Source of the DNA: a phage
Length of the DNA stretch: 64,000 bases
Reading direction: 5' to 3' (one strand)
Assembly: GCA_026188615.1 (NCBI GenBank)
Contig: GCA_026188615.1_4525.1
In this document: positions 18,773-54,997 of the stretch, one piece after another
Layout of the letters: each line of letters starts with the position of its first letter
Position numbering within the stretch: position 1 is the first letter of the stretch
The notes under the pieces: generated by a model
Told to the model about the DNA's origin: nothing
Databases searched by the model: none
The model's input: the letters and a program-made list of their open reading frames with translations, nothing else
Translations under genes and position numbers: made by a program

Positions 18773-19865
18773 ACCGTATGTTCGATTGAGCTCGCTAATT
18801 CTCAACCCGTTCTCTTATGAACTGCTGCATGTTACCATGCAGTCCAGACTATATCACAATCCCGGAGGGATTCTCCCCATTTCGAGTCGCTTGACCCTAC
18901 GTCCGAAGACTAGTCGTTGAACCTTGCTTTGCAATTGTCGCCGTGCCATCGTTTATATGTTGATGGTGATAAATCTTTCTTATCACAATATGGACAATTC
19001 AATTGAATTCTATTTGGATTTAATTTACATCTGTCATTATGTTTTAGATAAAATCCAGGACCTTTACCAATGTGACCACAGAAATCACATGTGATTTCTT
19101 TTTGTGCAGGATGGGTCCCGTTCTTAACCATTTCTAATGTTTTTGCTGATGTTCTTTTCTTATGGTCTTCTGATAAGAAATGATGTGAACCGTCATTTAC
19201 CCGTTTTGATTGAGTTTCTGACTGCATTTTACCACCGCAAAATACATGAGTACCTTCTTTTATAGCTGCAATATTGCGTTCTTTAACTTTTGCAATATGC
19301 TCAGCTTGTTGAAAATTATGTATACCTAATGCAACTCTATTTAAATTAGATTTACGCTGTATTTCACCGTCTAAAAGATGAAATGTACCATTTTCTATCT
19401 TAGATTTAATAGAGGCAATATTTTTAGCTCGTACTTCAGGGATATTAAAAATCTGGATTTCTCTAGATTTTGCGGCTTTAGAAGCTAATTCAGAAATTTC
19501 TTCAGGAGAATATTTCATTCTAAGCTTTATAGCATGACAAGCCTGGTAATCTTTTTGAGCTAAATGTATATCATAATGTTCCTGTATAGAAAGGCACATC
19601 AAATTATCTAAATCATTATTTTCACGGTTACCGTCTTTATGATGGATTTCGTATGTTCTTCCATCAGAATCTTTAGGTATAGGTCCGTTAGCATCTATCC
19701 AAATTTTTCTATAGTTCAATTGTGCATCCTCTTAAAAGTATAATCATATTTATATTATACTAATTAAAGGTGCAAGCAAAACCTTGGCTGCTAGTTTTCC
19801 TATAAAGGACTTTCCAGCAATTAAAGGAGTTTTCGATAAACGTTACCGTTTAAAGGCGCATTTTA
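18773..19865 (-). mobile_element. group I self-splicing intron in nrdB carrying HNH homing endonuclease ORF (boundaries approximate)
   Basis: NrdB reading frame split into two ORFs; in-frame stop immediately after exon 1 (YVSFA-stop); intervening 269-aa HNH ORF; matches known T-even nrdB intron architecture. Confidence 0.75.
18910..19719 (-). CDS. I-TevIII: intron-encoded HNH homing endonuclease, I-TevIII-like (full length)
   Basis: 269 aa; HNH motif YEIHHKDGNRENNDLDNL near N-terminus, C-terminal Cys/His zinc-finger-like repeats. Confidence 0.8.
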   Translation of the reverse strand: MNYRKIWIDANGPIPKDSDGRTYEIHHKDGNRENNDLDNLMCLSIQEHYDIHLAQKDYQACHAIKLRMKYSPEEISELASKAAKSREIQIFNIPEVRAKNIASIKSKIENGTFHLLDGEIQRKSNLNRVALGIHNFQQAEHIAKVKERNIAAIKEGTHVFCGGKMQSETQSKRVNDGSHHFLSEDHKKRTSAKTLEMVKNGTHPAQKEITCDFCGHIGKGPGFYLKHNDRCKLNPNRIQLNCPYCDKKDLSPSTYKRWHGDNCKARFND

Positions 19866-20540
19866 CGCAAAAGATACATAAAAACGAATAGCTTCTAAGG
19901 CATTAATAACGTGCAAACAGAGGTAAAGAGACTTCATTAAAGCACGTTTAGCTTCGGCTTCTTGTTTAATAGCTCGGTTTAAACGAAAGTCGGCATCAGG
20001 AGATTCTTTAGCTAGTTCTACAAATTCCTTAGCGTTTTCCCAATAACGAGCTTTAACCAGAACATCATCATAATATCGTCCGATAGATTCGGCACGCTTC
20101 ATAATAGCTTCATCTAATACAATCTCATCAAACACCTTCGATGGATCTGTATAAAGATTTCGCATAATATGAGTATATGAACGAGAGTGAATAGTTTCAC
20201 TGAAAGTCCATGTAGCAACCCATGTATCTAATGAAGGGTCTGAAAGCAATGACATAAGTACCGCAGATGGTGCTCTACCTTGGATAGAATCTAATAATGA
20301 TTGATACTTAAGGTTGTTGGTAAAGATGTCCTGTTGGAACTGTGGAAGCTTATTAAACTGGGCCGAATCCAACATCAAGTTTACTTCCTCGGGACGCCAG
20401 AAAAAACTTAGCTGCCGCTCAATGAGTTCTTCAAAAACTTTATGACGCTGAATATCATAACGTGCGAGACCAAGACCAGAACCAAAGAACATTGGTTCGT
20501 TCAAAACATCGACTTGTTGTGTATTAAAAACTGTACTCAT
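19866..20540 (-). CDS. nrdB: ribonucleotide reductase small subunit NrdB, exon 1
   Basis: 225 aa N-terminal part ending ...EAIRFYVSFA as in recalled NrdB just before the intron. Confidence 0.8.
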
Positions 20541-21235
20541 TTAGAATCCTTAAATTTACATTTATCATAATGCCATCTTAGAGCATTGCCTTTATTAACT
20601 TTCTTGCCACAATGCGGACAAGGTGGATATTCAGTACTTTGCTTAGTTCTCAAAGAAATCAAATCACGAGTTTCTTTAGTATGAGGAACATCTCTTGTTG
20701 GAGATATTGTACCATACATAGGATTAAGCACACCTAGTTTAGCTTTTGCTATATTCTTTTTGGCTTCATCTGATTTAGGTTTTCTCATCTTTTTCTTAGT
20801 TTCTTCACTTTTAGCCCTTCCTTTGGTTGCCGCCGATATTTTGTGCTTGGTTTCTTCTGTTAAATGTAGGCCTGTTTTCGCTTTTGAAATTTTCAGTCTT
20901 GTTTCTTCAGAAATGACCATACCTTTGCGAAATTGTGAATTTAACTTCTTTGCATGGGCATATATTTTAGAATGAACTTTATAATGTCGTTTCTTGGTTC
21001 CTTTCATATTGCACATCATGAAAAATGCGAATATAACAGATTTTATCGGATAAATCTTTGATAAAATAGCATGTGCTATAAAATGCTCTCTAGCTGTTAA
21101 TTCAACTAAATTTTCTTTATCATCAGAACCTCCTAAACATCTAGGAACTATATGATGAGTCTCTTTATATTCGGATAAAGGTTCCCGAGCCTTAGCCCGG
21201 GAAATTAGGTCGTTATAGATTTTTTGATAATTCAT
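20537..21235 (-). CDS. mobE: free-standing HNH homing endonuclease, MobE-like
   Basis: 232 aa; HNH motif ETHHIVPRCLGGSDDKENLVELTAREH; repeated basic NUMOD-like K.SEETK..IS.A units; sits between nrdA and nrdB as mobE does in T4. Confidence 0.7.
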   Translation of the reverse strand: MNYQKIYNDLISRAKAREPLSEYKETHHIVPRCLGGSDDKENLVELTAREHFIAHAILSKIYPIKSVIFAFFMMCNMKGTKKRHYKVHSKIYAHAKKLNSQFRKGMVISEETRLKISKAKTGLHLTEETKHKISAATKGRAKSEETKKKMRKPKSDEAKKNIAKAKLGVLNPMYGTISPTRDVPHTKETRDLISLRTKQSTEYPPCPHCGKKVNKGNALRWHYDKCKFKDSK

Positions 21236-23490
21236 TACAATTTACAAGCAGAACAATCTTCAGCTTTAGGTGTTTCTAATTCATAGTCGTCTGTACCAGA
21301 CCCATCACGAGTGTTATGATAGTAGAGGTTTTTTCCGCCAAAGTACCAGAAGTAAAGCAGATCGTCAAGCATTACAGACATTGGCACTTTACCTTTCTCA
21401 AATACTGCAGGGTCATAGTAAGTATTAGCAGAAGCAGATTGGCACACCCATTTCAACATGATAGCAACTTGGGTCAAATAAGGTTTATTACCTTTCTTAG
21501 CAAGTTTCCACGCGTAGTCGTAAAGACTCATGTTATGTTCTATATTAGGAACAACCTGTCGGAAGTTGCCTTCTTTAGATTCTTTAATACTTACTGGACC
21601 GCGTGGGGGCTCAATCCCGTTTGTAGAGTTCGATACTTGACTGCTTGACTCACAAGGCATGAGTGCAGACAACGTTGAGTTACGAATTCCATGTTCTTTG
21701 AGTTCAGCTCGAAGTTCTTCCCAGTCACAGACGTAGTTCGGGGCCGCGATTTGGTCAATCTTTTTATTGTACCAGTCGATAGGTAATTCGCCTCTAGACC
21801 ATTTAGTGTCTGAATAATACTCGCAAGGTCCTTTTTCTTTGGCGAGTTTGATTGAAGCTTTGATAAGGCCATATTGCAATCTCTCAAACAATTCATGAGT
21901 CAAATCGTTAGCATCTTCATATGAAGCAAAGTTAGAAGCTAACCATGCAGCATAGTTCGTCACACCAACGCCGAGGTTTCGACGCTTTTTAGCTTTTAAA
22001 GCTTCTGGAACAGGATAATCTTGATAGTCTAACAGGTTATCAAGTGCACGTACTTGTACTTCAGCAAGTTCATTAATTTTATCTTGGTCTTGCCAATCAA
22101 ATTTATCTAATACAAAAGCAGATAATGTGCATAAACCAATTTCAGCGTCAGGACCATTCACATCATTAGTTGGAATAGCGATTTCACAACATAAGTTACT
22201 CTGACGAATTGGAGCTTTTTCACGAATAAACGGAGTGTAGTTATTCGTGTTATCAACAAACTGTGGATAAATTCGAGCAGTACCAGAACGTTCAGTCATG
22301 AACAATTCAAAGAGTTCTAGTGCTTTGATTCTTTTCTTTCTGATTGTTGGGTCTTTTTCAGCTTTCTCATAAAGCTCACGGAATTTATCTTGATCTTCAA
22401 AGAACGAGTAGTATAGTTCGCCTGACATTTCGTGAGGGCTAAATAAAGTAATATAATCATTTTTACCAAGGCGTTCCATCATAAGGTCATTAATCTGAAT
22501 TCCGTAGTCCATATGTCGAATACGGTTTTCATCCACGCCTTTGTTATTTTTCAGAACTAATAGGTTCTCTACTTCTAAGTGCCACATCGGATAATACGCT
22601 GTAGCAGCACCACCACGAATACCACCTTGAGAACAAGATTTTACTGCAGTTTGGAAATGTTTCCAGAATGGAATAACACCTGTATGTCGAACTTCACCCA
22701 TACCGATCTTAGAACCTTCTGCACGAAGCATGCCAACGTTGATACCGATACCAGCTCGTTTAGAAATATATTCAATAATTGATGCTGAAGTTTTGTTAAT
22801 AGATTTTAACGAATCACCGGCTTCAATAACTACACAACTAGAGAACTGGCGAGTCGGAGTACGAGCACCTGCCATAATTGGGGTTGGCAATGAAACTTGA
22901 TGAGTAGAAACAGCATCATAAAAACGAATAATATGTTTCAAACGGTCATGAGTTTCGTCTTGATGTAAGGCCATACCAATAGCCATGATAGCAAACTGGG
23001 GAGTTTCATAAATCTTACCAGTTGTTTTATCTTTAACTAGGTATTTTTCTTTAAGCTGCATAGCACCAGCATAAGTCAGGTCAAAGTCTCGTTCATGTTT
23101 AATCTGTGAATCGAGATAAATGATTTCTTCTGCTGAATATTGAGACAACAGCTCAGGGTCATATTTGCCTTCATTAACACAGTAAGAAATATGGTCGATA
23201 AAAGCAGGCGGTTCAAACTGCCCATATACATCTTTACGAAGTGCAAACATTAGCCCTTTGGCGGCGACATACTGATAATCGGGTTCTTCGACAGAAATCA
23301 AGTTAGCTGCAACTTTAATACAAATCTTCTGGATATCTTTGGTGCTCATCCCATCGTCAAGATGGGTCTTAATTTCTTCGTACAATTCATATGGGTCGAT
23401 TTGTGTTCCTTCACATTGCCAAGTTAATACTTGAATAATTTTCTGTGCATCAAAATTTTGGGATACCCCACTGCTCTTAGTTACTTGCAT
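21235..23490 (-). CDS. nrdA: ribonucleotide reductase large subunit
   Basis: 751 aa (T4 NrdA 754); class I RNR large-subunit size and position next to nrdB. Confidence 0.9.
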   Translation of the reverse strand: MQVTKSSGVSQNFDAQKIIQVLTWQCEGTQIDPYELYEEIKTHLDDGMSTKDIQKICIKVAANLISVEEPDYQYVAAKGLMFALRKDVYGQFEPPAFIDHISYCVNEGKYDPELLSQYSAEEIIYLDSQIKHERDFDLTYAGAMQLKEKYLVKDKTTGKIYETPQFAIMAIGMALHQDETHDRLKHIIRFYDAVSTHQVSLPTPIMAGARTPTRQFSSCVVIEAGDSLKSINKTSASIIEYISKRAGIGINVGMLRAEGSKIGMGEVRHTGVIPFWKHFQTAVKSCSQGGIRGGAATAYYPMWHLEVENLLVLKNNKGVDENRIRHMDYGIQINDLMMERLGKNDYITLFSPHEMSGELYYSFFEDQDKFRELYEKAEKDPTIRKKRIKALELFELFMTERSGTARIYPQFVDNTNNYTPFIREKAPIRQSNLCCEIAIPTNDVNGPDAEIGLCTLSAFVLDKFDWQDQDKINELAEVQVRALDNLLDYQDYPVPEALKAKKRRNLGVGVTNYAAWLASNFASYEDANDLTHELFERLQYGLIKASIKLAKEKGPCEYYSDTKWSRGELPIDWYNKKIDQIAAPNYVCDWEELRAELKEHGIRNSTLSALMPCESSSQVSNSTNGIEPPRGPVSIKESKEGNFRQVVPNIEHNMSLYDYAWKLAKKGNKPYLTQVAIMLKWVCQSASANTYYDPAVFEKGKVPMSVMLDDLLYFWYFGGKNLYYHNTRDGSGTDDYELETPKAEDCSACKL

Positions 23491-48228: not shown

Positions 48229-50442
48229 TTATTTGGCCGCTTCCACGGCCTTCATGAATTTAACGATTTGAGCGACCTGTTCTTTTGAAAGAGTACCACG
48301 TCGTCCCATGTATTCTGACACAATATGATAATTGATTTCGAATTCAATAACCATTTTATCATCATTATCGTAAGCATTATCTTTAAGCTTATCGAAAATT
48401 TTAGCACATAATTCTAACTTCTTATTCAGGTCTCTGTTATCAGCACCTGCGAATCGATTCCATCCCCAGCGATTATTTACTGTTGAGAGTTTTGCAAAGT
48501 CTTTACTGATTTCTTTGTTCTTAGAGCTAAAATACTTACTAAGGAAGTTAAGCTCTTCATTACGAGTAATATGGTTTAGATAGGGTTGTGCTCTACGACT
48601 TGGTGATACATACTCATCATAATCTACTTTATCGATTAGCGTAATATAGTCATTAATTGATTTTTCGAACAAGCATTCTACTTCACCAAGTTTACGAACT
48701 TTCTTAGCAATCTGTGGGCGAACTACAGTGAACTCTTTAATACCTGATAAATCGGCAATACGGGTCAAGAAATTGGAGTCGTAGTTCAACCAACCTTTAT
48801 CTGCGTCAAGACATTCAGCATTAGAACGATTACGAACTATAACATAACCTTGGATTTCATCTGCTTCACTTGCCGGAATAAAGAGATCTTCTGATACCCA
48901 AACATCGTTTTCATTCTTAAAGAACCGATGAGCACTTGGGGATTTAGGACGAGGCTGCGATGAACGTTCTTTAACTTCAATCCATGGTTTAACCAATGCA
49001 AGAATTTCAGAGGTCTTATAAAATTTAAGGCTATCACCAGCGAAAATAACCTTTAATCGTTCCAGAAGTTTCATTGCAACTTCATCTTCCGGGTTAATGA
49101 ATAATACGCTACTACCCCATCCAGAAGGAACCTTATCAACGAGTGTTGATGCATCAGTGGAAGTCAAAGCATCGTTCAGAGCACGCATCATTGGTACGCG
49201 GCCTTTCACATCGTCAATAACGATATCAATATGCTTACGACTAATACCTAGCAGGCTATTAATTGAAATAGTTGCAGACGAGCTTCCGCTTTCACGAATA
49301 CGACGAAGTCGTGGGTTTGAAACGATATCATATACAACGCCAAGGTTGCACCATTCAGGTCCCATTTTAAAACGTTTGTACAACTCAGAATAAGTTAGTT
49401 GTTCTTTAGAGTATTTCAGTGATTCAATATTAGAACCGGCTTTTTCCATATATTTACGAGCAGAGTAACCAAGAGAATCGATTTCACGGAATACATGACG
49501 TGGATATTCACAATCAATCCATTTCTTAGAATCTTCAGCAAATAATTTTGCATCGATTTCTGCAACGCGTTTATGGATATTTGCTACTGTACGTTTATCA
49601 AATGACAATGCTTCACGAGACGGGGCTACATCTAGTTCACCCATAGGGAATTTAATATAAGCTGTAGTGCATCGTGTCATCATCCAGGTTTGTTCTTTAA
49701 TAACACTTCCGATTGGATATACAATACCACCATAAACAGCCATGATATTACCACGTTCACCCCATGGAGCTTCCTTGGCTAAATAAACATCATCGAATTC
49801 CGGGAAGTATTTGATATCTTTAACACCGCGAACTTCTGCAATATCACCTAGAGGACGCATAACATATGCAATTTCAGATGCGAACTTTTCAAAATCTTCT
49901 GGGTTAACCGGTACAACTACTTCAACGCCGGTCCGGTCATCAGGACCCATCTTATCTACGAAGGTTGGCTTAATCTGTGGACCAGTGTCATCTTGGTAGA
50001 TTACGTAACCACGAACTTCGCCATTATGATAAGAAGTAATGTTAAACGTATCGGTATATGCTAGTGGAGCTTTAGAGCCGAGTCCGAATCCACCAATGAA
50101 ATCGTTACTCGATGTTTTAGTTGAAGCAAAATATGAGTTATAGATTCCTGGCTCTTCATCATTACCTCGAATGGTGAAATCACTCATACCAGGACCAAAG
50201 TCTCGAACTACAAAACGTGGGTCTAAACGACCTGGTGCCTGAACAATAAACTTATCAGTGCAACCATTAAGAATTTGTCCATCGATACAGTTGGTGATTA
50301 ATTCACGTACACAAGCCAATTCTTTGTTTGTATAAAGGTCATTAGACAAAATCTTATAAACTTTGCTATTGCCTTGAATAGTGAATGCTGTGCTCTTACC
50401 GCCTGAACCAATAATCGTTTCTTTAGCCGTTTCAATAATCAT
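48229..50442 (-). CDS. rIIA: rIIA (rapid-lysis / RexAB-exclusion protector)
   Basis: 737 aa (T4 rIIA 725); adjacent to rIIB. Confidence 0.85.
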   Translation of the reverse strand: MIIETAKETIIGSGGKSTAFTIQGNSKVYKILSNDLYTNKELACVRELITNCIDGQILNGCTDKFIVQAPGRLDPRFVVRDFGPGMSDFTIRGNDEEPGIYNSYFASTKTSSNDFIGGFGLGSKAPLAYTDTFNITSYHNGEVRGYVIYQDDTGPQIKPTFVDKMGPDDRTGVEVVVPVNPEDFEKFASEIAYVMRPLGDIAEVRGVKDIKYFPEFDDVYLAKEAPWGERGNIMAVYGGIVYPIGSVIKEQTWMMTRCTTAYIKFPMGELDVAPSREALSFDKRTVANIHKRVAEIDAKLFAEDSKKWIDCEYPRHVFREIDSLGYSARKYMEKAGSNIESLKYSKEQLTYSELYKRFKMGPEWCNLGVVYDIVSNPRLRRIRESGSSSATISINSLLGISRKHIDIVIDDVKGRVPMMRALNDALTSTDASTLVDKVPSGWGSSVLFINPEDEVAMKLLERLKVIFAGDSLKFYKTSEILALVKPWIEVKERSSQPRPKSPSAHRFFKNENDVWVSEDLFIPASEADEIQGYVIVRNRSNAECLDADKGWLNYDSNFLTRIADLSGIKEFTVVRPQIAKKVRKLGEVECLFEKSINDYITLIDKVDYDEYVSPSRRAQPYLNHITRNEELNFLSKYFSSKNKEISKDFAKLSTVNNRWGWNRFAGADNRDLNKKLELCAKIFDKLKDNAYDNDDKMVIEFEINYHIVSEYMGRRGTLSKEQVAQIVKFMKAVEAAK

Positions 50443-50454
50443 ATTTTTCTCTCA

Positions 50455-50655
50455 TCACAAGTTACGTTTAAAAATTTCTGCCACTTCGAGAAGTTCTTCT
50501 TTAGTAGCTGTATCGGTTTGTATTTTATATCGAATTTCTTTAAAGCGTTCTTTAAAGGACTCTGCTGACTCGATATCAAAAAATCTTTGGATAAGCCGGA
50601 ATTCCCGGAGCACCGCTTTATCAAAAAGTTCCAAGTCCACGTTATATGTTCTCAT
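50455..50655 (-). CDS. hypothetical small protein (rIIA.1 position)
   Basis: 66-aa ORF just upstream of rIIA. Confidence 0.45.
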   Translation of the reverse strand: MRTYNVDLELFDKAVLREFRLIQRFFDIESAESFKERFKEIRYKIQTDTATKEELLEVAEIFKRNL

Positions 50656-50747: not shown

Positions 50748-51848
50748 TTACGCTGTGAAGATTTTATCCCACATCGCAACAACTGCATCTCGGTTATACT
50801 TCTTCCATACTGCTTCAGCACGTTTAACTCGAGCTTCGTATGTGTCAGTGAATTCTAATACAGCTTTTGTGTAAAGCGCAACTACTTCTTTCTTAGGAGT
50901 AGAGGAATCAATTTCTACACGCACAGTATCTGGGTCGTATTCAAATGTCGCATGAGGATAATCCTTAAAAACTAACTGAATTACAGGGACACCTTTAGAG
51001 ATGGCTTCAATAGAACTATTCTCTACCGTACCTGTGTCAGGACACGTATTAATAAGTGCTTTAGCTGTTTTAAGGCGTTCCATGATTTCACTGTGTGGAG
51101 CATCAATAATAACAGGATATTTAGCCGGTGGCACCCATTTGCTTGGACAGTATCCTGCACCATTTTCGCCTAGTGCTTTAATCGCTTCAAGAGCAACATC
51201 AGTACGACGCATTTTAGTGTCATAACGTTGTGCACTAATAATCAGATCCGTCGCCGGAAGAACTTCAGGTTTCTCATTCAAACAAATAACCGGATAATCT
51301 TCGGCTTCAAACAACGGATTTGCTCGCCAATAATCATAATCAATTTTGTCAGTCAGACCTGAAGTCATATAACAATATTTGCGTTCAAATTCACGGAAGG
51401 CTTTAGTAGGAGCATAACTCTTACCACCATTCTTATGAATTTGAATAGTCTGGTCCCAAATTTGAACAATGCCACGAGATACCGGTTCAAATGGTGTTGC
51501 CATAAAATTCTTATGAACTTTAGAGAGACCCGCGTCTTTAATTGCCTGAACGGTTAGTTTGGTCGGTTCCATTGTAACAACGAAATCGTACTCATTAATG
51601 CCGGCTAGTTCAACAATCTTACGAGCCATAGTATAACTCATACCTAGACTGAATTTAGTCAGATGACCAACAGGATGATGATTAACCTTCCAATCACCAA
51701 ATGTGTCATTATCAAAGCCGATATAATCAATATCAGCGCCGGTGGACACAAGATATTTCAACACATTTAAATGTACTGCTTCAAGACCACCTTGTACACG
51801 GTCAGGATTAAATGGGACTGCACGAGACGGGATAAACATAACTTTCAT
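50748..51848 (-). CDS. putative glycosyltransferase (GT-B-like), candidate DNA hydroxymethylcytosine-sugar transferase
   Basis: 366 aa; N-terminal MKVMFIPSRA..GGLEAVHLNVLKYL and C-terminal ENSSIEAISKGVPVIQL resemble GT-B/GT4 motifs; occupies the gene 60 position of T4. Confidence 0.55.
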   Translation of the reverse strand: MKVMFIPSRAVPFNPDRVQGGLEAVHLNVLKYLVSTGADIDYIGFDNDTFGDWKVNHHPVGHLTKFSLGMSYTMARKIVELAGINEYDFVVTMEPTKLTVQAIKDAGLSKVHKNFMATPFEPVSRGIVQIWDQTIQIHKNGGKSYAPTKAFREFERKYCYMTSGLTDKIDYDYWRANPLFEAEDYPVICLNEKPEVLPATDLIISAQRYDTKMRRTDVALEAIKALGENGAGYCPSKWVPPAKYPVIIDAPHSEIMERLKTAKALINTCPDTGTVENSSIEAISKGVPVIQLVFKDYPHATFEYDPDTVRVEIDSSTPKKEVVALYTKAVLEFTDTYEARVKRAEAVWKKYNRDAVVAMWDKIFTA

Positions 51849-51874: not shown

Positions 51875-51892
51875 AAGCTCCCGAAGGAGCTT
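51875..51892 (-). terminator. hairpin AAGCUCC-UUCG-GGAGCUU between HNH ORF and glycosyltransferase
   Basis: 7-bp stem with CGAA loop on plus strand; A-rich upstream. Confidence 0.45.
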
Positions 51893-52688
51893 AGGACATC
51901 CAACACATTTTATAACCTTTGCAGGTTCTGTTAGGATTATTTAATGCTTTCAATATATTAGAAGACCCTATATCTAAATACTCCCTTAATTCATAAAGAT
52001 AGTTAAAATCAATAGTTTCACCTGTTTTTACACTTGTGATTCTTATAGGCCTTCTTTCATATTTAGATTTATACAACTCTCTAGTCTTAGCTTTAGTTTC
52101 TTCCGACCTAGGAGTGTATGGTTTAAATCCTTTTGTTTTAAATGTTTCCATTCTTGATTTAGTTATTTTATCCTGGTGTTCTTTTGTTTTTACAGGTGCT
52201 TTTCGCCCATTCTCCCAAGATAACTTGTTGGCCTGTATTATTTTATCTATTGCTTCTTGCGTATGAGTTTTACCATAAAATGGATTTAATTCGCCTATAC
52301 GTTGTGAAGCAATATGTGACATTAATTCTCTTGTTGCTTTAGTATGTTTTTTACCTTTAAATGGATTGCCATTTTTAGCAATCCATTCTTTCATAAATCT
52401 AGAGTGCTCTTTAGAGAATTCTTGTTTAAGCCAATCATAATCTCTAGAATTTCTAGCTCCCATGTAAAAAGCTCTAATAGCCATAAGCATAGAACGGTTC
52501 TTATGAATTTTATAAAGCAATAAATGGGCGATAAAATGCTCTCTAGGGGTCAATTTAACTAGATTTGATTTAGCATTACTCCCGCCCATAGATTTTGGCA
52601 ATATATGATGCGTCTCAGTATAATTAGGAATAATGCTGCGGTTTTTAGCCGCAGCGATAAGTTTATCATAAATTTTACGATAATTCAT
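51891..52688 (-). CDS. free-standing HNH homing endonuclease (MobA-like, intact)
   Basis: ~265 aa from MNYRKIYDKL start overlapping gene 39 stop; HNH motif ETHHILPKSMGGSNAKSNLVKLTPREH; basic repeat-rich C-terminus. Confidence 0.7.
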   Translation of the reverse strand: MNYRKIYDKLIAAAKNRSIIPNYTETHHILPKSMGGSNAKSNLVKLTPREHFIAHLLLYKIHKNRSMLMAIRAFYMGARNSRDYDWLKQEFSKEHSRFMKEWIAKNGNPFKGKKHTKATRELMSHIASQRIGELNPFYGKTHTQEAIDKIIQANKLSWENGRKAPVKTKEHQDKITKSRMETFKTKGFKPYTPRSEETKAKTRELYKSKYERRPIRITSVKTGETIDFNYLYELREYLDIGSSNILKALNNPNRTCKGYKMCWMS

Positions 52689-54508
52689 TATCCTAGCATC
52701 CAATCTTTACGGAGTTCAGGGTCGTTACCCATGAGCATTTCAAATAGTTCTTTCCAATTTTCAGGAAGTTTAACTACGTCGTACACAGGGTTTTGAATCA
52801 TTTCTTTATATTCATCTCGCTGAAGTGAGCCTAATCCCTTGATGTATCGAATACTATGCTTAGGAAGTGTATCTTTAGCTTCTTCATACTCAGCTACAGT
52901 ATAAAACCATTTTTGAGTTTTGCCAATTTGTGCAATAATTACAGGCGTTTTAACAAAGCGAATACGTCCTTGTTCAAACAATTCAGGCCAATTACTAAAG
53001 AAAGCAAGCAAAGCCGGATAGATACTTCCAAGACCGTCATGATCGGCATCGGTCATAATTGCAATATTACGATAGTTCGTATTCTCTGCCTTTTCACCAA
53101 GAATAAGACCTGTGATAGCACAGATATCAAAGAGCTCTTTGTTCTTCATCATATCAGCATATGACATACCCCAGCTATTCATCACCTTACCACGTAATGG
53201 GAATCCGCCGTGTAGTTCACGGTCACGAACATCAATGAGATAACCAATTGCCGAATCACCTTCTGTTAAAAACAATGTCGTATCTGCATCTTTACCACAT
53301 TGGTTAGCTTTAATATGCTTATGAACCTTAGCTTTAGTTGCCTTTTTAGCTGCTTTAGTTTCTGCAGCCTTTTCTGCTGCCAATTTACGAGCTAATGCTG
53401 CTTCAACAATAGGCATAATCAAGGCTTCGTTTTTAAGAAGTGCCTGAGCAATTTTCTTAGCATCTAATTGGATATGATTACGAATATCACCATACGTTGA
53501 CGTTAAACGTTCTTTAGTCTGAGAATCAAAACGCATGTTGCTCATGTCTCTAATAAACATCAACATTGTGAGGCATTCTTTAACACGAGCTTTAGTGACT
53601 TCAATACCCTTATATTTCTTTTTAATACCCGGTAAAAGATGTTCGCAGATATCATCCATTACACATTCAACATGATGACCACCATTTTTAGTATGGATGT
53701 TATTCACATAAGTTAAATGACGGAAGCCATCTGGTGATGTTGTGAATGCTATAGAGACTTTATCATTTTCTTGAATGATGTTATCTTCACCAAATTGTTT
53801 AGCAAATCGTTTAAAATTACCATCAACCTTTTTACCATTAAATGTGAACTTGATATCAGGATAAACGACTGCCAATGTTTGAAGTCGGTCTAAAGTAATA
53901 TCTAAATAAATTTGAGATAAATTATGCTCTTCAAATGAAGAGAAATCAGGAGTGAAGATTACTTTAGTGCCTTTACCTTTAGATTTCTTAGAAGACCATG
54001 ATTTGTTTTCCATTCCGTTTGAACAGTTAACAGTGATTTCATTTTCGCCATCTGACGTGATGCCTGTAAACAAAGTAGAGAAGATATTAGTTAAACTACT
54101 CCCGACGCCGTTCATACCGCCAGTCTTGCGTTCAGAATCATCACCAAAGTTACCACCAGCCTTTGGAATAGTCCAGGCTGCTACAGGCCCAGGAATTTGT
54201 TCACCTGTTTGGTCAGTAACTAAACCTTGAGGAATACCACGTCCGTTATCTTCCACCGAAACTTGATTATTTTTAATTTGCACATCAATTTTATTTGCAA
54301 ACTTAAATGATGTACGAATAGCTTCATCAACCGAGTTGTCAATAATCTCATCGATTAATTTAACCAGACCAGGAACATATTCAACTTGTTGATATTTACC
54401 AAACAAAAAACGCTCATGGGCTTCTTTAGCAGAAGAACCAATATACATGCCACTACGTTTCTTAATATGTTCTACATCTGACAGTACCTTAATTTCATTT
54501 TTAATCAT
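52688..54508 (-). CDS. 39: DNA topoisomerase II large subunit gp39 (GyrB-like), unsplit form
   Basis: 606 aa single ORF; GHKL ATPase-like N-terminus (..DNGRGIP..); no separate gene 60. Confidence 0.85.
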   Translation of the reverse strand: MIKNEIKVLSDVEHIKKRSGMYIGSSAKEAHERFLFGKYQQVEYVPGLVKLIDEIIDNSVDEAIRTSFKFANKIDVQIKNNQVSVEDNGRGIPQGLVTDQTGEQIPGPVAAWTIPKAGGNFGDDSERKTGGMNGVGSSLTNIFSTLFTGITSDGENEITVNCSNGMENKSWSSKKSKGKGTKVIFTPDFSSFEEHNLSQIYLDITLDRLQTLAVVYPDIKFTFNGKKVDGNFKRFAKQFGEDNIIQENDKVSIAFTTSPDGFRHLTYVNNIHTKNGGHHVECVMDDICEHLLPGIKKKYKGIEVTKARVKECLTMLMFIRDMSNMRFDSQTKERLTSTYGDIRNHIQLDAKKIAQALLKNEALIMPIVEAALARKLAAEKAAETKAAKKATKAKVHKHIKANQCGKDADTTLFLTEGDSAIGYLIDVRDRELHGGFPLRGKVMNSWGMSYADMMKNKELFDICAITGLILGEKAENTNYRNIAIMTDADHDGLGSIYPALLAFFSNWPELFEQGRIRFVKTPVIIAQIGKTQKWFYTVAEYEEAKDTLPKHSIRYIKGLGSLQRDEYKEMIQNPVYDVVKLPENWKELFEMLMGNDPELRKDWMLG

Positions 54509-54558: not shown

Positions 54559-54572
54559 AGGGCCGAAGCCCT
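54559..54572 (-). terminator. hairpin AGGGC-UUCG-GCCCU plus U-run upstream of gene 39
   Basis: 5-bp stem with CGAA loop, A-run 54555..54559. Confidence 0.4.
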
Positions 54573-54997
54573 TATTTAAATTTAATTTTCTGAAGTGCAT
54601 CAATTGCAGCCAGGCGCCCTTGTTCACTTTTAACTGTAATGACCACATCGCCTGATACGATCACCGAACCATCAACAAATTCTATAGAGCCTTTTTTGAA
54701 ATCAACAGATGTATCTGGTTCCGGAACTTCTTCAAAGAATTTAAATTCTGCACCATAAAGCAGAATATCACCTTGCATACTATGAATAGTTCGGCCATAA
54801 TCGCCTACGGCTTCTACAGCAATAACCGAAACACCGTAACCAATCATCTCTTCCACAATAAAATCTTTAGACAATAAAGTAGTATGCAGATTAGTATTAA
54901 GACGTTTACCAGTCGTATTAAGAATTCTCAAGAAATTATCTTCCTGTCCTTTGATAATACGATATTTCTTACCAACTTCAAAACCTTTAAAAGCCAT
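54572..54997 (-). CDS. hypothetical protein (39.1 position)
   Basis: 141-aa ORF. Confidence 0.45.
   Translation of the reverse strand: MAFKGFEVGKKYRIIKGQEDNFLRILNTTGKRLNTNLHTTLLSKDFIVEEMIGYGVSVIAVEAVGDYGRTIHSMQGDILLYGAEFKFFEEVPEPDTSVDFKKGSIEFVDGSVIVSGDVVITVKSEQGRLAAIDALQKIKFK

Follow-up and report, generated by a model that had tools for sequence, protein, structure and literature searches.

Gene 39, which encodes the large subunit of topoisomerase II, is the classic case of an essential gene reshaped by a homing endonuclease, as seen in the split subunits of T4 and its gene 60 bypass. All MobA elements are inserted at amino acids 466-473 of the large subunit, Topo2L (Manning & Atkins, bioRxiv 10.1101/2022.08.31.505936); besides the bypass, they add extensions at the C- and N-termini and a homologous replacement region (bioRxiv 10.1101/2022.08.31.505936). 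The topoisomerases of T2 and T6 are two-subunit enzymes (PMC11461880), and any phage that MobA has not invaded, T2 and T6 among them, has gene 39 unsplit (PMC11461880). In systems of the SegG type the cut falls at some distance from the endonuclease gene and is accompanied by co-conversion of the flanks and by marker exclusion (PMC2988022).

In the window, that is, the whole 64-kb stretch of phage DNA analysed here, all genes of the locus lie on the minus strand. Gene 39 (52688..54508, minus strand), assigned from the ORF list and Pfam hits to HATPase_c, DNA_gyraseB, TOPRIM_C and Toprim, is a single unsplit ORF of 606 aa of the T2/T6 type, collinear first with T4 gp39 (aa 1-473) and then with gp60 (aa ~27-158). 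In the alignments, residues 1-474 were 79% identical to gp39 residues 1-473 and residues 473-604 were 83% identical to gp60 residues 27-158, with no gap at the T4 split or bypass site (DHDG|LGS), and the only residues that go beyond gp39 plus gp60 are a final Leu-Gly. A tblastn search with gp60 found no separate gene 60 elsewhere in the 64-kb window, and a blastn search with the T4 bypass region gave no match elsewhere in it. Thus, the unsplit 606-aa gene 39 described in the earlier note, with neither gene 60 nor a bypass element, was borne out. That note would have given up its reading if the C-terminal part of gp39 had no homology to T4 gp60; since about 130 aa are homologous to it, at the 83% identity given above, this did not happen.

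The HNH ORF (51891..52688, minus strand) is a free-standing gene for a Mob-family HNH homing endonuclease of 265 aa and looks intact. It extends from an ATG at 52686-52688 to a stop at 51891-51893, and the ATG and the TAA of gene 39 have one base in common (TAATGA, 52685-52690). The mechanical ORF list places the start at an upstream TTG (52703); we used the ATG, which about 20 GenBank records annotate as the start of a 798-nt 'homing endonuclease' CDS. An intact HNH ORF overlapping the gene 39 stop (TAATG) had been anticipated from the letters alone and is what we found. The description of this ORF as fused onto gene 39 holds for adjacency and overlap but not for a fusion protein, since there are two ORFs in different frames; likewise, the HNH gene does stand at the 3' end of gene 39, although it is inserted inside the last codons and not merely appended.

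The HNH protein joins a homing-type nuclease domain to a DNA-binding region: an HNH head (aa 1-71) is followed by a 194-aa tail with two NUMOD3 motifs, scoring over the Pfam cut-off, and the C-terminus forms a DNA-binding-like strand/helix module (aa ~215-260). The protein matches the PHROG 655 'homing endonuclease' family at 1e-56, and H27, H28, N42, H51 and H55 are invariant among 52 homologues. Its head shows the Mob-family pattern MNYxKIY...HHIxP..GG...NLVxLT.xEHxxAH and is 55-67% identical to the heads of MobA, MobE, MobY1 and MobZ, and its tail was found only within its own lineage. A sequence search of solved structures was uninformative beyond the HNH motif, which was weakly matched in McrA (E = 0.22). 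I-HmuI of Bacillus phage SPO1, an HNH nicking enzyme (PDB 1U3E), is a weak match with 13% sequence identity in the aligned part, and differs in being intron-encoded and only 174 aa long.

Aligning the window with APCEc01 and JK45, which have no HNH gene, and with AV109, which has one, gave a length difference of 800 nt. By this comparison with HNH-less phages, the inserted cassette reaches from CTAGGATAATGAATTAT... to ...AAAATGTGTTGGATG (51897..52696, minus strand), its boundary being ambiguous within a 6-nt repeat. A TGGATG direct repeat lies upstream (52697..52702, minus strand; gene 39 codons Trp-Met), and the second TGGATG, followed by TCC TAA, lies downstream (51891..51902, minus strand) and is the original gene 39 end (W M S *). 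In HNH-less phages gene 39 ends ...TGG ATG TCC TAA (605 aa), which puts the insertion point at codon 604/605. The last three gene 39 codons here, CTA GGA TAA, come from the cassette (CTAGGATAATGA, 52685..52696, minus strand, as read from the letters), and this Leu-Gly-stop takes the place of the last sense codon, Ser. The HNH ORF reads on in frame through the old end W M S * and closes with ...GYKMCWMS where its relatives end ...G(F/H)KW(K/R)Y. Similarly, the intrinsic terminator hairpin AAGCTCCTTCGGGAGCTT followed by CATTTT (51875..51892, minus strand), which stands directly after gene 39 in HNH-less phages, serves the HNH ORF here. Since the cassette brings a diverged replacement 3' end, the host gene is kept working without a split and a bypass.

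The element resembles MobA in its host gene, the topoisomerase II large subunit, in the overlap of its ORF with the end of the upstream gene 39 ORF, and in a nuclease head (71 aa) that is 63-67% identical to the one described here. Both elements also carry diverged host coding sequence near the presumed target (the replacement region in MobA; two substituted patches, described below, in this case), and both recur in several phage clades. However, MobA elements enter at aa 466-473 and split the gene into ORF1 and ORF2, whereas the insertion here is at codon 604/605; their cassettes measure 1097-1106 nt versus 800 nt; and their 50-nt translational bypass and added terminal extensions are both absent. 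The 194-aa tail is unrelated, while MobA proteins retain full-length homology of 31-58% between clades, including their unique C-terminal region: only aa 1-71 of the HNH protein align with MobA, whereas the MobA proteins of HY01, an E. coli phage, and of an Acinetobacter phage are 49% identical over 278 aa. The locus thus departs from MobA elements in insertion site, in extensions and bypass, and in full-length homology. With its site at codon 604/605, an unsplit gene, no bypass and an unrelated tail, it is therefore not a MobA element. As the margin of the head for MobA over MobE-like proteins is small (63-67% versus 55-58%), we do not claim a MobA-specific origin of the head.

T4 MobE, encoded between nrdA and nrdB, is similar in combining a Mob-family HNH head (about 58% identity over 71 aa) with a distinct tail, in being a promoter-less cassette whose start overlaps the stop of the upstream essential gene as UAAUGA (PMC2988022), and in having a terminator-like hairpin in the 5' part of the ORF (PMC2988022). 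It differs in its host gene, nrd instead of gene 39, and in an unrelated tail, and only the cassette described here is inserted within the final codons of the gene before it, taking over that gene's stop codon. The window has, in addition, a MobE-like gene (20537-21235) at the classical place between nrdA and nrdB. With SegG/gene 32 and other T-even 'intronless homing' systems the locus shares a free-standing endonuclease gene beside an essential gene, but SegG-type enzymes belong to the GIY-YIG family, and cleavage has been shown experimentally for them, whereas here it is deduced.

The UAAUGA overlap, with an AGGA Shine-Dalgarno inside CTAGGATAATGA (52691-52694), is by its sequence a translational-coupling arrangement, and the same UAAUGA arrangement occurs at nrdA/mobE (PMC2988022). 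According to RNA fold prediction, the 101-nt RNA around the overlap folds with z = -4.2, and the Shine-Dalgarno and the AUG are paired with the downstream AUUAUUCCUA. A terminator scan and RNA folding located, 33 nt after the start of the HNH ORF, the GC-rich hairpin GCTGCGGCTAAAAACCGCAGC (52635..52655, minus strand); it appears terminator-like and is a candidate attenuator of endonuclease expression. A GC hairpin is found at the corresponding ORF position in L016 and in HY01 mobA, and mobE and segF are known to have internal terminators in their 5' parts (PMC2988022). The endonuclease would be made at a low level through translational coupling to gene 39, with its start hidden by RNA structure and with the hairpin early in its ORF possibly adding to the restraint. 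A sigma-70 promoter for the HNH gene was rejected, as 10 promoter-like sites were found versus 11.7 in shuffled sequence.

Three full-length relatives of the HNH protein, with 42-45% identity, were found at the same position in three other T4-like clades. P0002, P0003 and P0004 each lie directly behind a gene 39, which is a complete ORF of 606-607 aa ahead of P0002 and P0003 and a contig-truncated ORF of 429 aa ahead of P0004. In L016 the HNH ORF continues into what is left of the old end of the gene, CTTCGTAAAGAGTGGATGAATCAATAG; since megablast detected no cassette-free relatives of this clade above 74% identity, the insertion boundaries there are not definable by comparison. Scanning IMG/VR with a tail-only alignment returned phiE142 itself and two NUMOD3-only matches, and no further clades. 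The 3'-end lineage keeps its own tail and its own position across four clades.

Next to these distant relatives, nearly identical copies of the cassette were carried by 16 Mosigvirus and six Tequatrovirus genomes (22 phages, 28 records), and more than 100 near-identical Mosigvirus records were without it. Of 151 Mosigvirus-type records covering at least 80% of the query, about 20 were HNH+ and the remainder had the 800-nt gap; the HNH tail was present in 28 records only, each at an identity of at least 95%. Presence and absence alternate at one exact site among near-identical genomes.

The Tequatrovirus carriers have a chimeric gene 39. In F1 and fPS-90 the gene is T4-like up to about nt 1470; past this point it differs from the Mosigvirus HNH+ allele at 0-2 positions in every 60 nt, and it is followed by the HNH gene, the terminator and the first 57 nt of a 366-aa gene that is otherwise Mosigvirus-only. 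Inspection covered F1, fPS-90, FL12, BYEP01 and CJY920, five of the six Tequatrovirus carriers, and all five have the downstream junction CCTGAC|CTTCGTAAAGAATGGATGAGCCAGTAG, in which CTTCGTAAAGAATGGATGAGCCAGTAG is the retained Tequatrovirus gene 39 end. The upstream crossover varies among them from nt ~1402 to ~1656, and about 160-420 nt of Mosigvirus gene 39 moved along with the cassette. The cassette itself is 98.7-99.1% identical between both genera, versus about 75% for the rest of gene 39. Judging from these junctions, the Tequatrovirus copies came from a Mosigvirus donor, and the several distinct upstream crossovers indicate repeated transfer. The primary jump between the genera is a single event that could have come about by ordinary illegitimate recombination without cleavage. 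The suggestion that the 3' end of gene 39 is a homing target is supported by the polymorphism, the co-conversion of flanks and the spread across genera. A CTTCGT retention point shared by the F1-type and L016 junctions may mark the cut site, but microhomology (CTGACC, ATGCT) explains the junctions equally well.

Decayed and lost copies were also found. The AV118 copy has a +1 frameshift, LF82-4 and OLB35 have a 19-nt footprint left after deletion, and NHEP36 has a clean TGGATG|TCCTAA end and no HNH gene, with both patches retained.

Patch 1 (gene 39 nt 1683-1704; 52805..52826, minus strand) has 12 substitutions in 22 nt and encodes SLQRDEYK, compared to SLEKSEYR in the HNH-less alleles against which the substitutions were counted. 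This clustering is highly significant (12 mismatches in 22 nt, hypergeometric P = 4e-16), and 23 of the 37 gene 39 mismatches fall within the last 130 nt (P = 2e-18). The patch was found in 28/28 HNH+ records, and the positions at which naive Mosigvirus agrees with T4 but carriers differ are clustered at nt 1687-1704. Even the shortest co-conversion tract, that of CJY920, includes patch 1 and starts only ~28 nt upstream of it, and in JM17, which lacks the HNH gene and has a naive end, patch 1 occurs by itself. Patch 2 (nt 1764-1806; 52703..52745, minus strand), with 10 substitutions versus HNH-less Mosigvirus alleles, is separable from patch 1 and less carrier-specific. We consider patch 1, ~110 nt upstream of the insertion, to be the likely target and immunity site. 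It could, alternatively, be hitch-hiking variation or serve expression: it contains TATAAAGA (52803-52810), a 7/8 match to the T4 late-promoter consensus, about 107 nt upstream of the HNH ATG, where the HNH-less allele has TATCGTGA. Also, the patch-bearing HNH-less alleles of NHEP36 and JM17 could stem from the ancestral background instead of from a loss or a short-tract conversion.

Taken together, it is very probable that the locus holds a free-standing Mob-type HNH homing endonuclease on an 800-nt cassette in the last codons of an unsplit gene 39, and that it homes in the following way. The enzyme would bind DNA through its NUMOD3 motifs and C-terminal tail and, in a mixed infection, would nick or cut gene 39 of a cassette-free phage, presumably within the stretch that encodes SLEKSEYRE, ~110-130 bp upstream of the insertion point. 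Repair by recombination from the carrier genome would then transfer a copy of the cassette, together with its flanks, to the genome that was cut, and carriers would be protected from their own enzyme by the 12 substitutions in the 22 nt of patch 1.

Many intron-encoded homing enzymes cleave at their own insertion site, and the cassette might do the same: the target would be TGGATG|TCCTAA plus the terminator, the insertion itself would protect, and patch 1, which does create TATAAAGA in front of the HNH gene, would supply a late-promoter-like element. We regard this as unlikely. The Tequatrovirus recipients end differently, in ATGAGCCAGTAG and without this terminator, and the final 27-33 nt of their gene end are intact downstream of the imported DNA; JM17 has patch 1 in front of a naive end, and in NHEP36 the insertion site is restored and intact, yet the patches are kept. 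Moreover, TATAAAGA differs from the late-promoter consensus, and Mob and Seg enzymes commonly cleave away from their genes (PMC2988022).

Still less probable, in our view, is that the HNH gene spreads passively by ordinary homologous or illegitimate recombination, being neutral or domesticated, for example as a nuclease against competing phages or host DNA, with the patches as polymorphism that hitch-hiked from the first lineage invaded. Recombination is very frequent in T-even phages, the Tequatrovirus carriers are joined through microhomology at the downstream junction, and patch-bearing alleles without the HNH gene do exist (NHEP36, JM17, LF82-4). However, passive linkage does not predict relatives of 42-45% identity at the same spot in clades where gene 39 DNA is at most 74% identical. 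The substitutions are concentrated in 22 nt of a Mosigvirus allele that is near-identical otherwise, precisely where naive Mosigvirus equals T4. The near identity of the cassette across genera in a gene that is otherwise so diverged, and the distinct upstream crossovers, which point to repeated transfer, also argue against it.

The proposal of the earlier note, that the locus is the pre-split ancestor of T4 39/mobA/60, with MobA parked at the end of gene 39 and later moved inward to split it, is highly improbable: an unsplit gene 39 collinear with gp39 and then gp60, an HNH head somewhat nearer to MobA than to MobE, MobY1 and MobZ (55-58%), and HNH and mobA starts that both overlap the end of the gene 39 ORF agree with it, but residues 72-265 are dissimilar to MobA while true MobA proteins are alike over their full length, the site, terminal extensions, replacement region and bypass that mark MobA are absent, the 3'-end lineage is marked by a conserved tail and position of its own in four clades, and cassette-free relatives show the empty site to be the ancestral state, so that this is a different element.

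As a selfish, mobile nuclease gene the element is of an ordinary kind, although the site that it occupies is undescribed, and the gene should be annotated as a Mob-type homing endonuclease specific to the gene 39 3' end, not as MobA. We tentatively suggest, as a real possibility, that it represents a second, independent homing lineage for the topoisomerase II large subunit, in which a MobA-like head was joined to a new NUMOD3/helix-turn-helix tail and retargeted ~400 nt downstream of the MobA site, with the gene left unsplit, immunity provided by patch 1, and the stop and terminator borrowed. If so, it would be a simpler answer than the split subunits and 50-nt ribosomal bypass of MobA, and the allele series would make the homing cycle and the determinants of immunity testable in E. 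coli phages. The cassette accounts for the chimeric gene 39 sequences of some Tequatrovirus genomes. Related genomes offer naive, patch-1-only, full-carrier, decayed, footprint and clean-loss alleles as well as cross-genus chimeras, a series that can be used for mapping the targets of Mob-type enzymes and for studying self-immunity through few substitutions and the crossing of genera by microhomology joins. The locus shows that gene 39 is struck at another site, too, by an endonuclease lineage that is related to MobA yet distinct from it and that keeps the host gene working in a much simpler way.

By megablast, the region was placed in Mosigvirus, the RB69-like T-even phages. About 20 records with 97-98.5% identity extended over the entire 4.6-kb query and had the ORF annotated as 'homing endonuclease', while more than 100 other records of about 98% identity lacked exactly 800 nt. 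The phiC120 genome paper (PMC8022965) gives this ORF no more than a brief mention, as a homing endonuclease that contains NUMOD3. All genes of the gene 39 region are encoded on the minus strand, in the transcription order goF-like ORF (54572-54997), gene 39 (52688-54508, 606 aa), HNH ORF (51891-52688, 265 aa, directly after gene 39), a 366-aa ORF (50748-51848), rIIA.1 (50455-50655) and rIIA (48229-50442). The 366-aa ORF has no Pfam match but matches PHROG 8302 (unknown function), is labelled 'glycosyltransferase' in some records and is missing from Tequatrovirus, apart from its first 57 nt, which were carried with the cassette into six genomes of that genus. Phage JK45 has an extra 136-aa ORF without Pfam match between rIIA.1 and the 366-aa gene (L002 849-1259), another presence/absence polymorphism of the gene 39-rIIA region.

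The gene 39 product contains HATPase_c, DNA_gyraseB, Toprim and TOPRIM_C signatures. Its residues 1-474 correspond to residues 1-473 of T4 gp39 (79% identity) and its C-terminal residues 473-604 are homologous to residues 27-158 of T4 gp60 (83% identity), the alignment being ungapped at both the T4 split and the bypass site. Neither tblastn with gp60 nor blastn with the T4 bypass region found a separate gene 60 or a bypass element elsewhere in the 64-kb window. The earlier note was thus right in describing an unsplit gene 39 without gene 60 or bypass, and also in placing the HNH start over the gene 39 stop, as TAATGA is read at 52685-52690.

In order to define the insertion boundaries, the window was aligned with the cassette-free alleles of APCEc01 and JK45. 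In these naive alleles gene 39 ends in AAA GAA TGG ATG TCC TAA, with the terminator hairpin GCTCCTTCGGGAGC immediately after it, whereas in phages carrying the cassette it ends in AAA GAT TGG ATG CTA GGA TAA TG and the HNH ORF ends in TGT TGG ATG TCC TAA GCTCC. Because the ends align in this way, the 800-nt cassette (51897-52696) is placed within the last codons of gene 39, flanked by two TGGATG repeats. The Leu-Gly-stop of gene 39 is supplied by the cassette, and the same codons hold the AGGA Shine-Dalgarno sequence and the start overlap. The old W-M-S-stop of gene 39 is read in frame as the end of the HNH ORF, which is also served by the old terminator. The HNH protein ends in GYKMCWMS and its relatives in G(F/H)KW(K/R)Y, a difference consistent with the captured end of gene 39 having taken the place of the native C-terminus.

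The arrangement of the HNH start resembles that of nrdA/mobE, where the same UAAUGA overlap is taken as translational coupling (PMC2988022). The 101 nt around the HNH start have a predicted fold far better than shuffled sequences (z = -4.2, 0/200 shuffles), in which CUAGGAUAAU, holding the Shine-Dalgarno sequence and the start codon, pairs with the downstream AUUAUUCCUA. Since the last codons of gene 39 contain the 5' arm of the stem, a ribosome terminating there would open the stem. A GC-rich terminator-like hairpin is located 33 nt into the HNH ORF (52635-52655), and similar hairpins occupy the same position in contig L016, which carries an HNH relative, and in mobA of phage HY01; internal 5' terminators are known in mobE and segF (PMC2988022). 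A promoter scan found no excess of sigma-70-like promoters for the HNH ORF. In another clade there is no overlap of gene 39 with the HNH relative, the two being separated by a 34-nt spacer (L019 3967-4003), whose predicted hairpin (GGAGGATATTTCTATCCTCC) would sequester a GGAGG Shine-Dalgarno sequence and would be a different way of repressing endonuclease translation.

The proposal that the 3' end of gene 39 is a homing target gained support from comparative evidence. The same cassette occupies the same place in six Tequatrovirus genomes (F1, FN, fPS-90, FL12, BYEP01 and CJY920), and the sequence was inspected in all but FN. Up to nt ~1400, gene 39 of F1 is 96-97% identical to T4 and ~75% to Mosigvirus; from nt ~1490 to the end it differs from the carrier allele of Mosigvirus at 0-2 positions per 60 nt. 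Downstream of the HNH ORF there follow the terminator of Mosigvirus and then the initial 57 nt of the 366-aa gene, which is Mosigvirus-only. From there the sequence passes, at the microhomology CTGACC, into CTTCGTAAAGAATGGATGAGCCAGTAG, the end of the original Tequatrovirus gene 39 (LRKEWMSQ-stop), which has been retained. This junction is common to the five inspected carriers, while their upstream crossovers vary from nt ~1402 to ~1656, and therefore further spread or recombination took place within Tequatrovirus. The HNH ORFs of the two genera differ at just 7-10 of 798 nt.

Decay and loss of the cassette were also observed. The HNH ORF of AV118 carries a +1 frameshift and ECO111 5-P matches in two pieces. 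NHEP36 keeps the carrier-type flank with a clean TGGATG-TCCTAA end, precisely the product expected if the cassette had been excised across the 6-nt repeat. LF82-4 and OLB35 have a footprint of 19 nt, CTTGGTTAATTGATAGATG, similar to the two cassette ends at 15/19 positions; TH12, phiEC1, TH58 and CCU7 show the same match to the carrier-type 3' end and, judging from the matches, probably carry it too. Three full-length relatives of the HNH protein (P0002-P0004, 42-45% identity) are each encoded directly 3' of gene 39 in metagenomic T4-like contigs, gene 39 being a complete ORF of 606-607 aa beside P0002 and P0003 and a 429-aa ORF truncated by the contig beside P0004; for one of these clades the nearest known gene 39 has 74% DNA identity. 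In L016, from the clade of P0002, the start again overlaps the gene 39 stop (GTGA), the ORF reads into 27 nt left over from the old gene end, and gene 39 itself bears a second, diverged copy of that end. Therefore, the lineage as a whole is tied to the gene 39 3' end. Just after the HNH relatives of two very different clades (L020 2040-2110 and L016 4470-4540) there is a shared GTATAAATATCTCC containing the T4 late-promoter consensus, and the L020 ORF terminates in a sequence (TATGCTGACGAAG) similar to the Tequatrovirus-like end of a gene 39 (AATGCTGACCTTCG). Another inter-clade transfer scar could be seen in these similarities.

Gene 39 of the window differs from that of APCEc01 at 37 of 1812 nt. 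The last 130 nt hold 23 of these mismatches (P = 2e-18), and patch 1, a 22-nt stretch (nt 1683-1704, window 52805-52826), contains 12 (P = 4e-16). When positions were selected at which naive Mosigvirus equals T4 but carriers are different, these clustered in nt 1687-1704 (9/18 positions), in an allele that around the patch is otherwise plainly Mosigvirus-like. Patch 1 is present in 28/28 carrier records, and the L016 carrier gp39 has SLQRSEYGE at this position too. JM17, a Mosigvirus without the HNH ORF, has patch 1 together with a naive end and a naive patch 2, the second substituted stretch; such an allele would result from repair over a short tract with a break near patch 1 at its centre. 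The shortest co-conversion tract among Tequatrovirus carriers, that of CJY920, begins just ~28 nt upstream of patch 1. On account of the mismatch clustering, the carrier records, JM17, CJY920 and L016, we lean slightly towards the view that the enzyme recognizes and nicks naive gene 39 around the SLEKSEYRE codons, at a distance of 110-130 bp from the HNH gene, and that carriers are protected from it by patch 1. Alternatively, patch 1 might provide the late-promoter-like TATAAAGA. The proposed protective role would have a parallel in the diverged replacement region of the MobA element, and the proposed distant nick in the cleavage sites of other free-standing enzymes.

Further nuclease genes were found in the window and at gene 39. 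A second Mob-family HNH ORF (20537-21235, minus strand, 232 aa, beginning MNYQKIYNDLISRAKAREPLSEYKETHHIVPRCLGG) with Pfam HNH and NUMOD3 matches lies between a 751-aa upstream ORF (21235-23490), which we take to be nrdA, and a 225-aa downstream ORF (19863-20540), presumably nrdB. Its start has one base in common with the end of the 751-aa ORF, and this location is the classical MobE position. Over 159 aa, its product shares 34% identity with the HNH protein encoded behind gene 39. In AV109, the 5' end of gene 39 is overlapped by an additional ORF of 227 aa (L003 4605-5288), in which three NUMOD3 motifs occur; AV118 has the same arrangement (L015 65-472), such an ORF being present in some Mosigvirus carriers. 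This additional ORF probably represents a second gene for a homing endonuclease, in which case gene 39 would be flanked by endonucleases on both sides. In L016, a 235-aa Endonuclease_7 ORF (Pfam PF02945) lies immediately upstream of gene 39 (1144-1851). Mobile nuclease genes in general seem to have a hot spot at gene 39.

The HNH protein matches PHROG 655 'homing endonuclease' (1e-56) and has two NUMOD3 motifs above the Pfam cut-off, with HNH and HNH_4 just under theirs. H27, H28, G36, N42, H51, H55 and L58 are unchanged across 52 homologues, the catalytic HNH residues falling within this invariant set. In the AlphaFold2 model (mean pLDDT 84.6), an N-terminal strand-strand-helix unit is followed by a series of helices and, at the C-terminus, by a strand/helix module. 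Residues 1-71 share 63% identity with the intact MobA of HY01, 66-67% with an Acinetobacter phage MobA and 55-58% with MobE, MobY1 and MobZ, but for residues 72-265 no similarity to MobA was found, while the two MobA proteins are 49% identical over their full length. In the phage collection, the tail was found in 28 records, all of them cassette carriers with at least 95% identity, and the next matches were to the NUMOD3 motif only. On these sequence comparisons, the enzyme is of the Mob family and is not MobA. MobA elements are 1097-1106 nt long and are inserted always and 'exclusively' at Topo2L aa 466-473. They bring with them the bypass and a homologous replacement region, the split products gain C- and N-terminal extensions, and their description includes no endonuclease at the gene 39 3' end (Manning & Atkins, bioRxiv 10.1101/2022.08.31.505936). 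The cassette has none of these defining features and was rejected as a MobA element or its precursor. The 'pre-split T4 locus' of the earlier note is likewise not supported; T2, T6 and most relatives simply have an unsplit gene 39 (PMC11461880). The element is a free-standing Mob-type homing endonuclease cassette, of an ordinary kind but at an undescribed site, and it has an informative insertion anatomy, a clear scar of cross-genus transfer and a natural allelic series.
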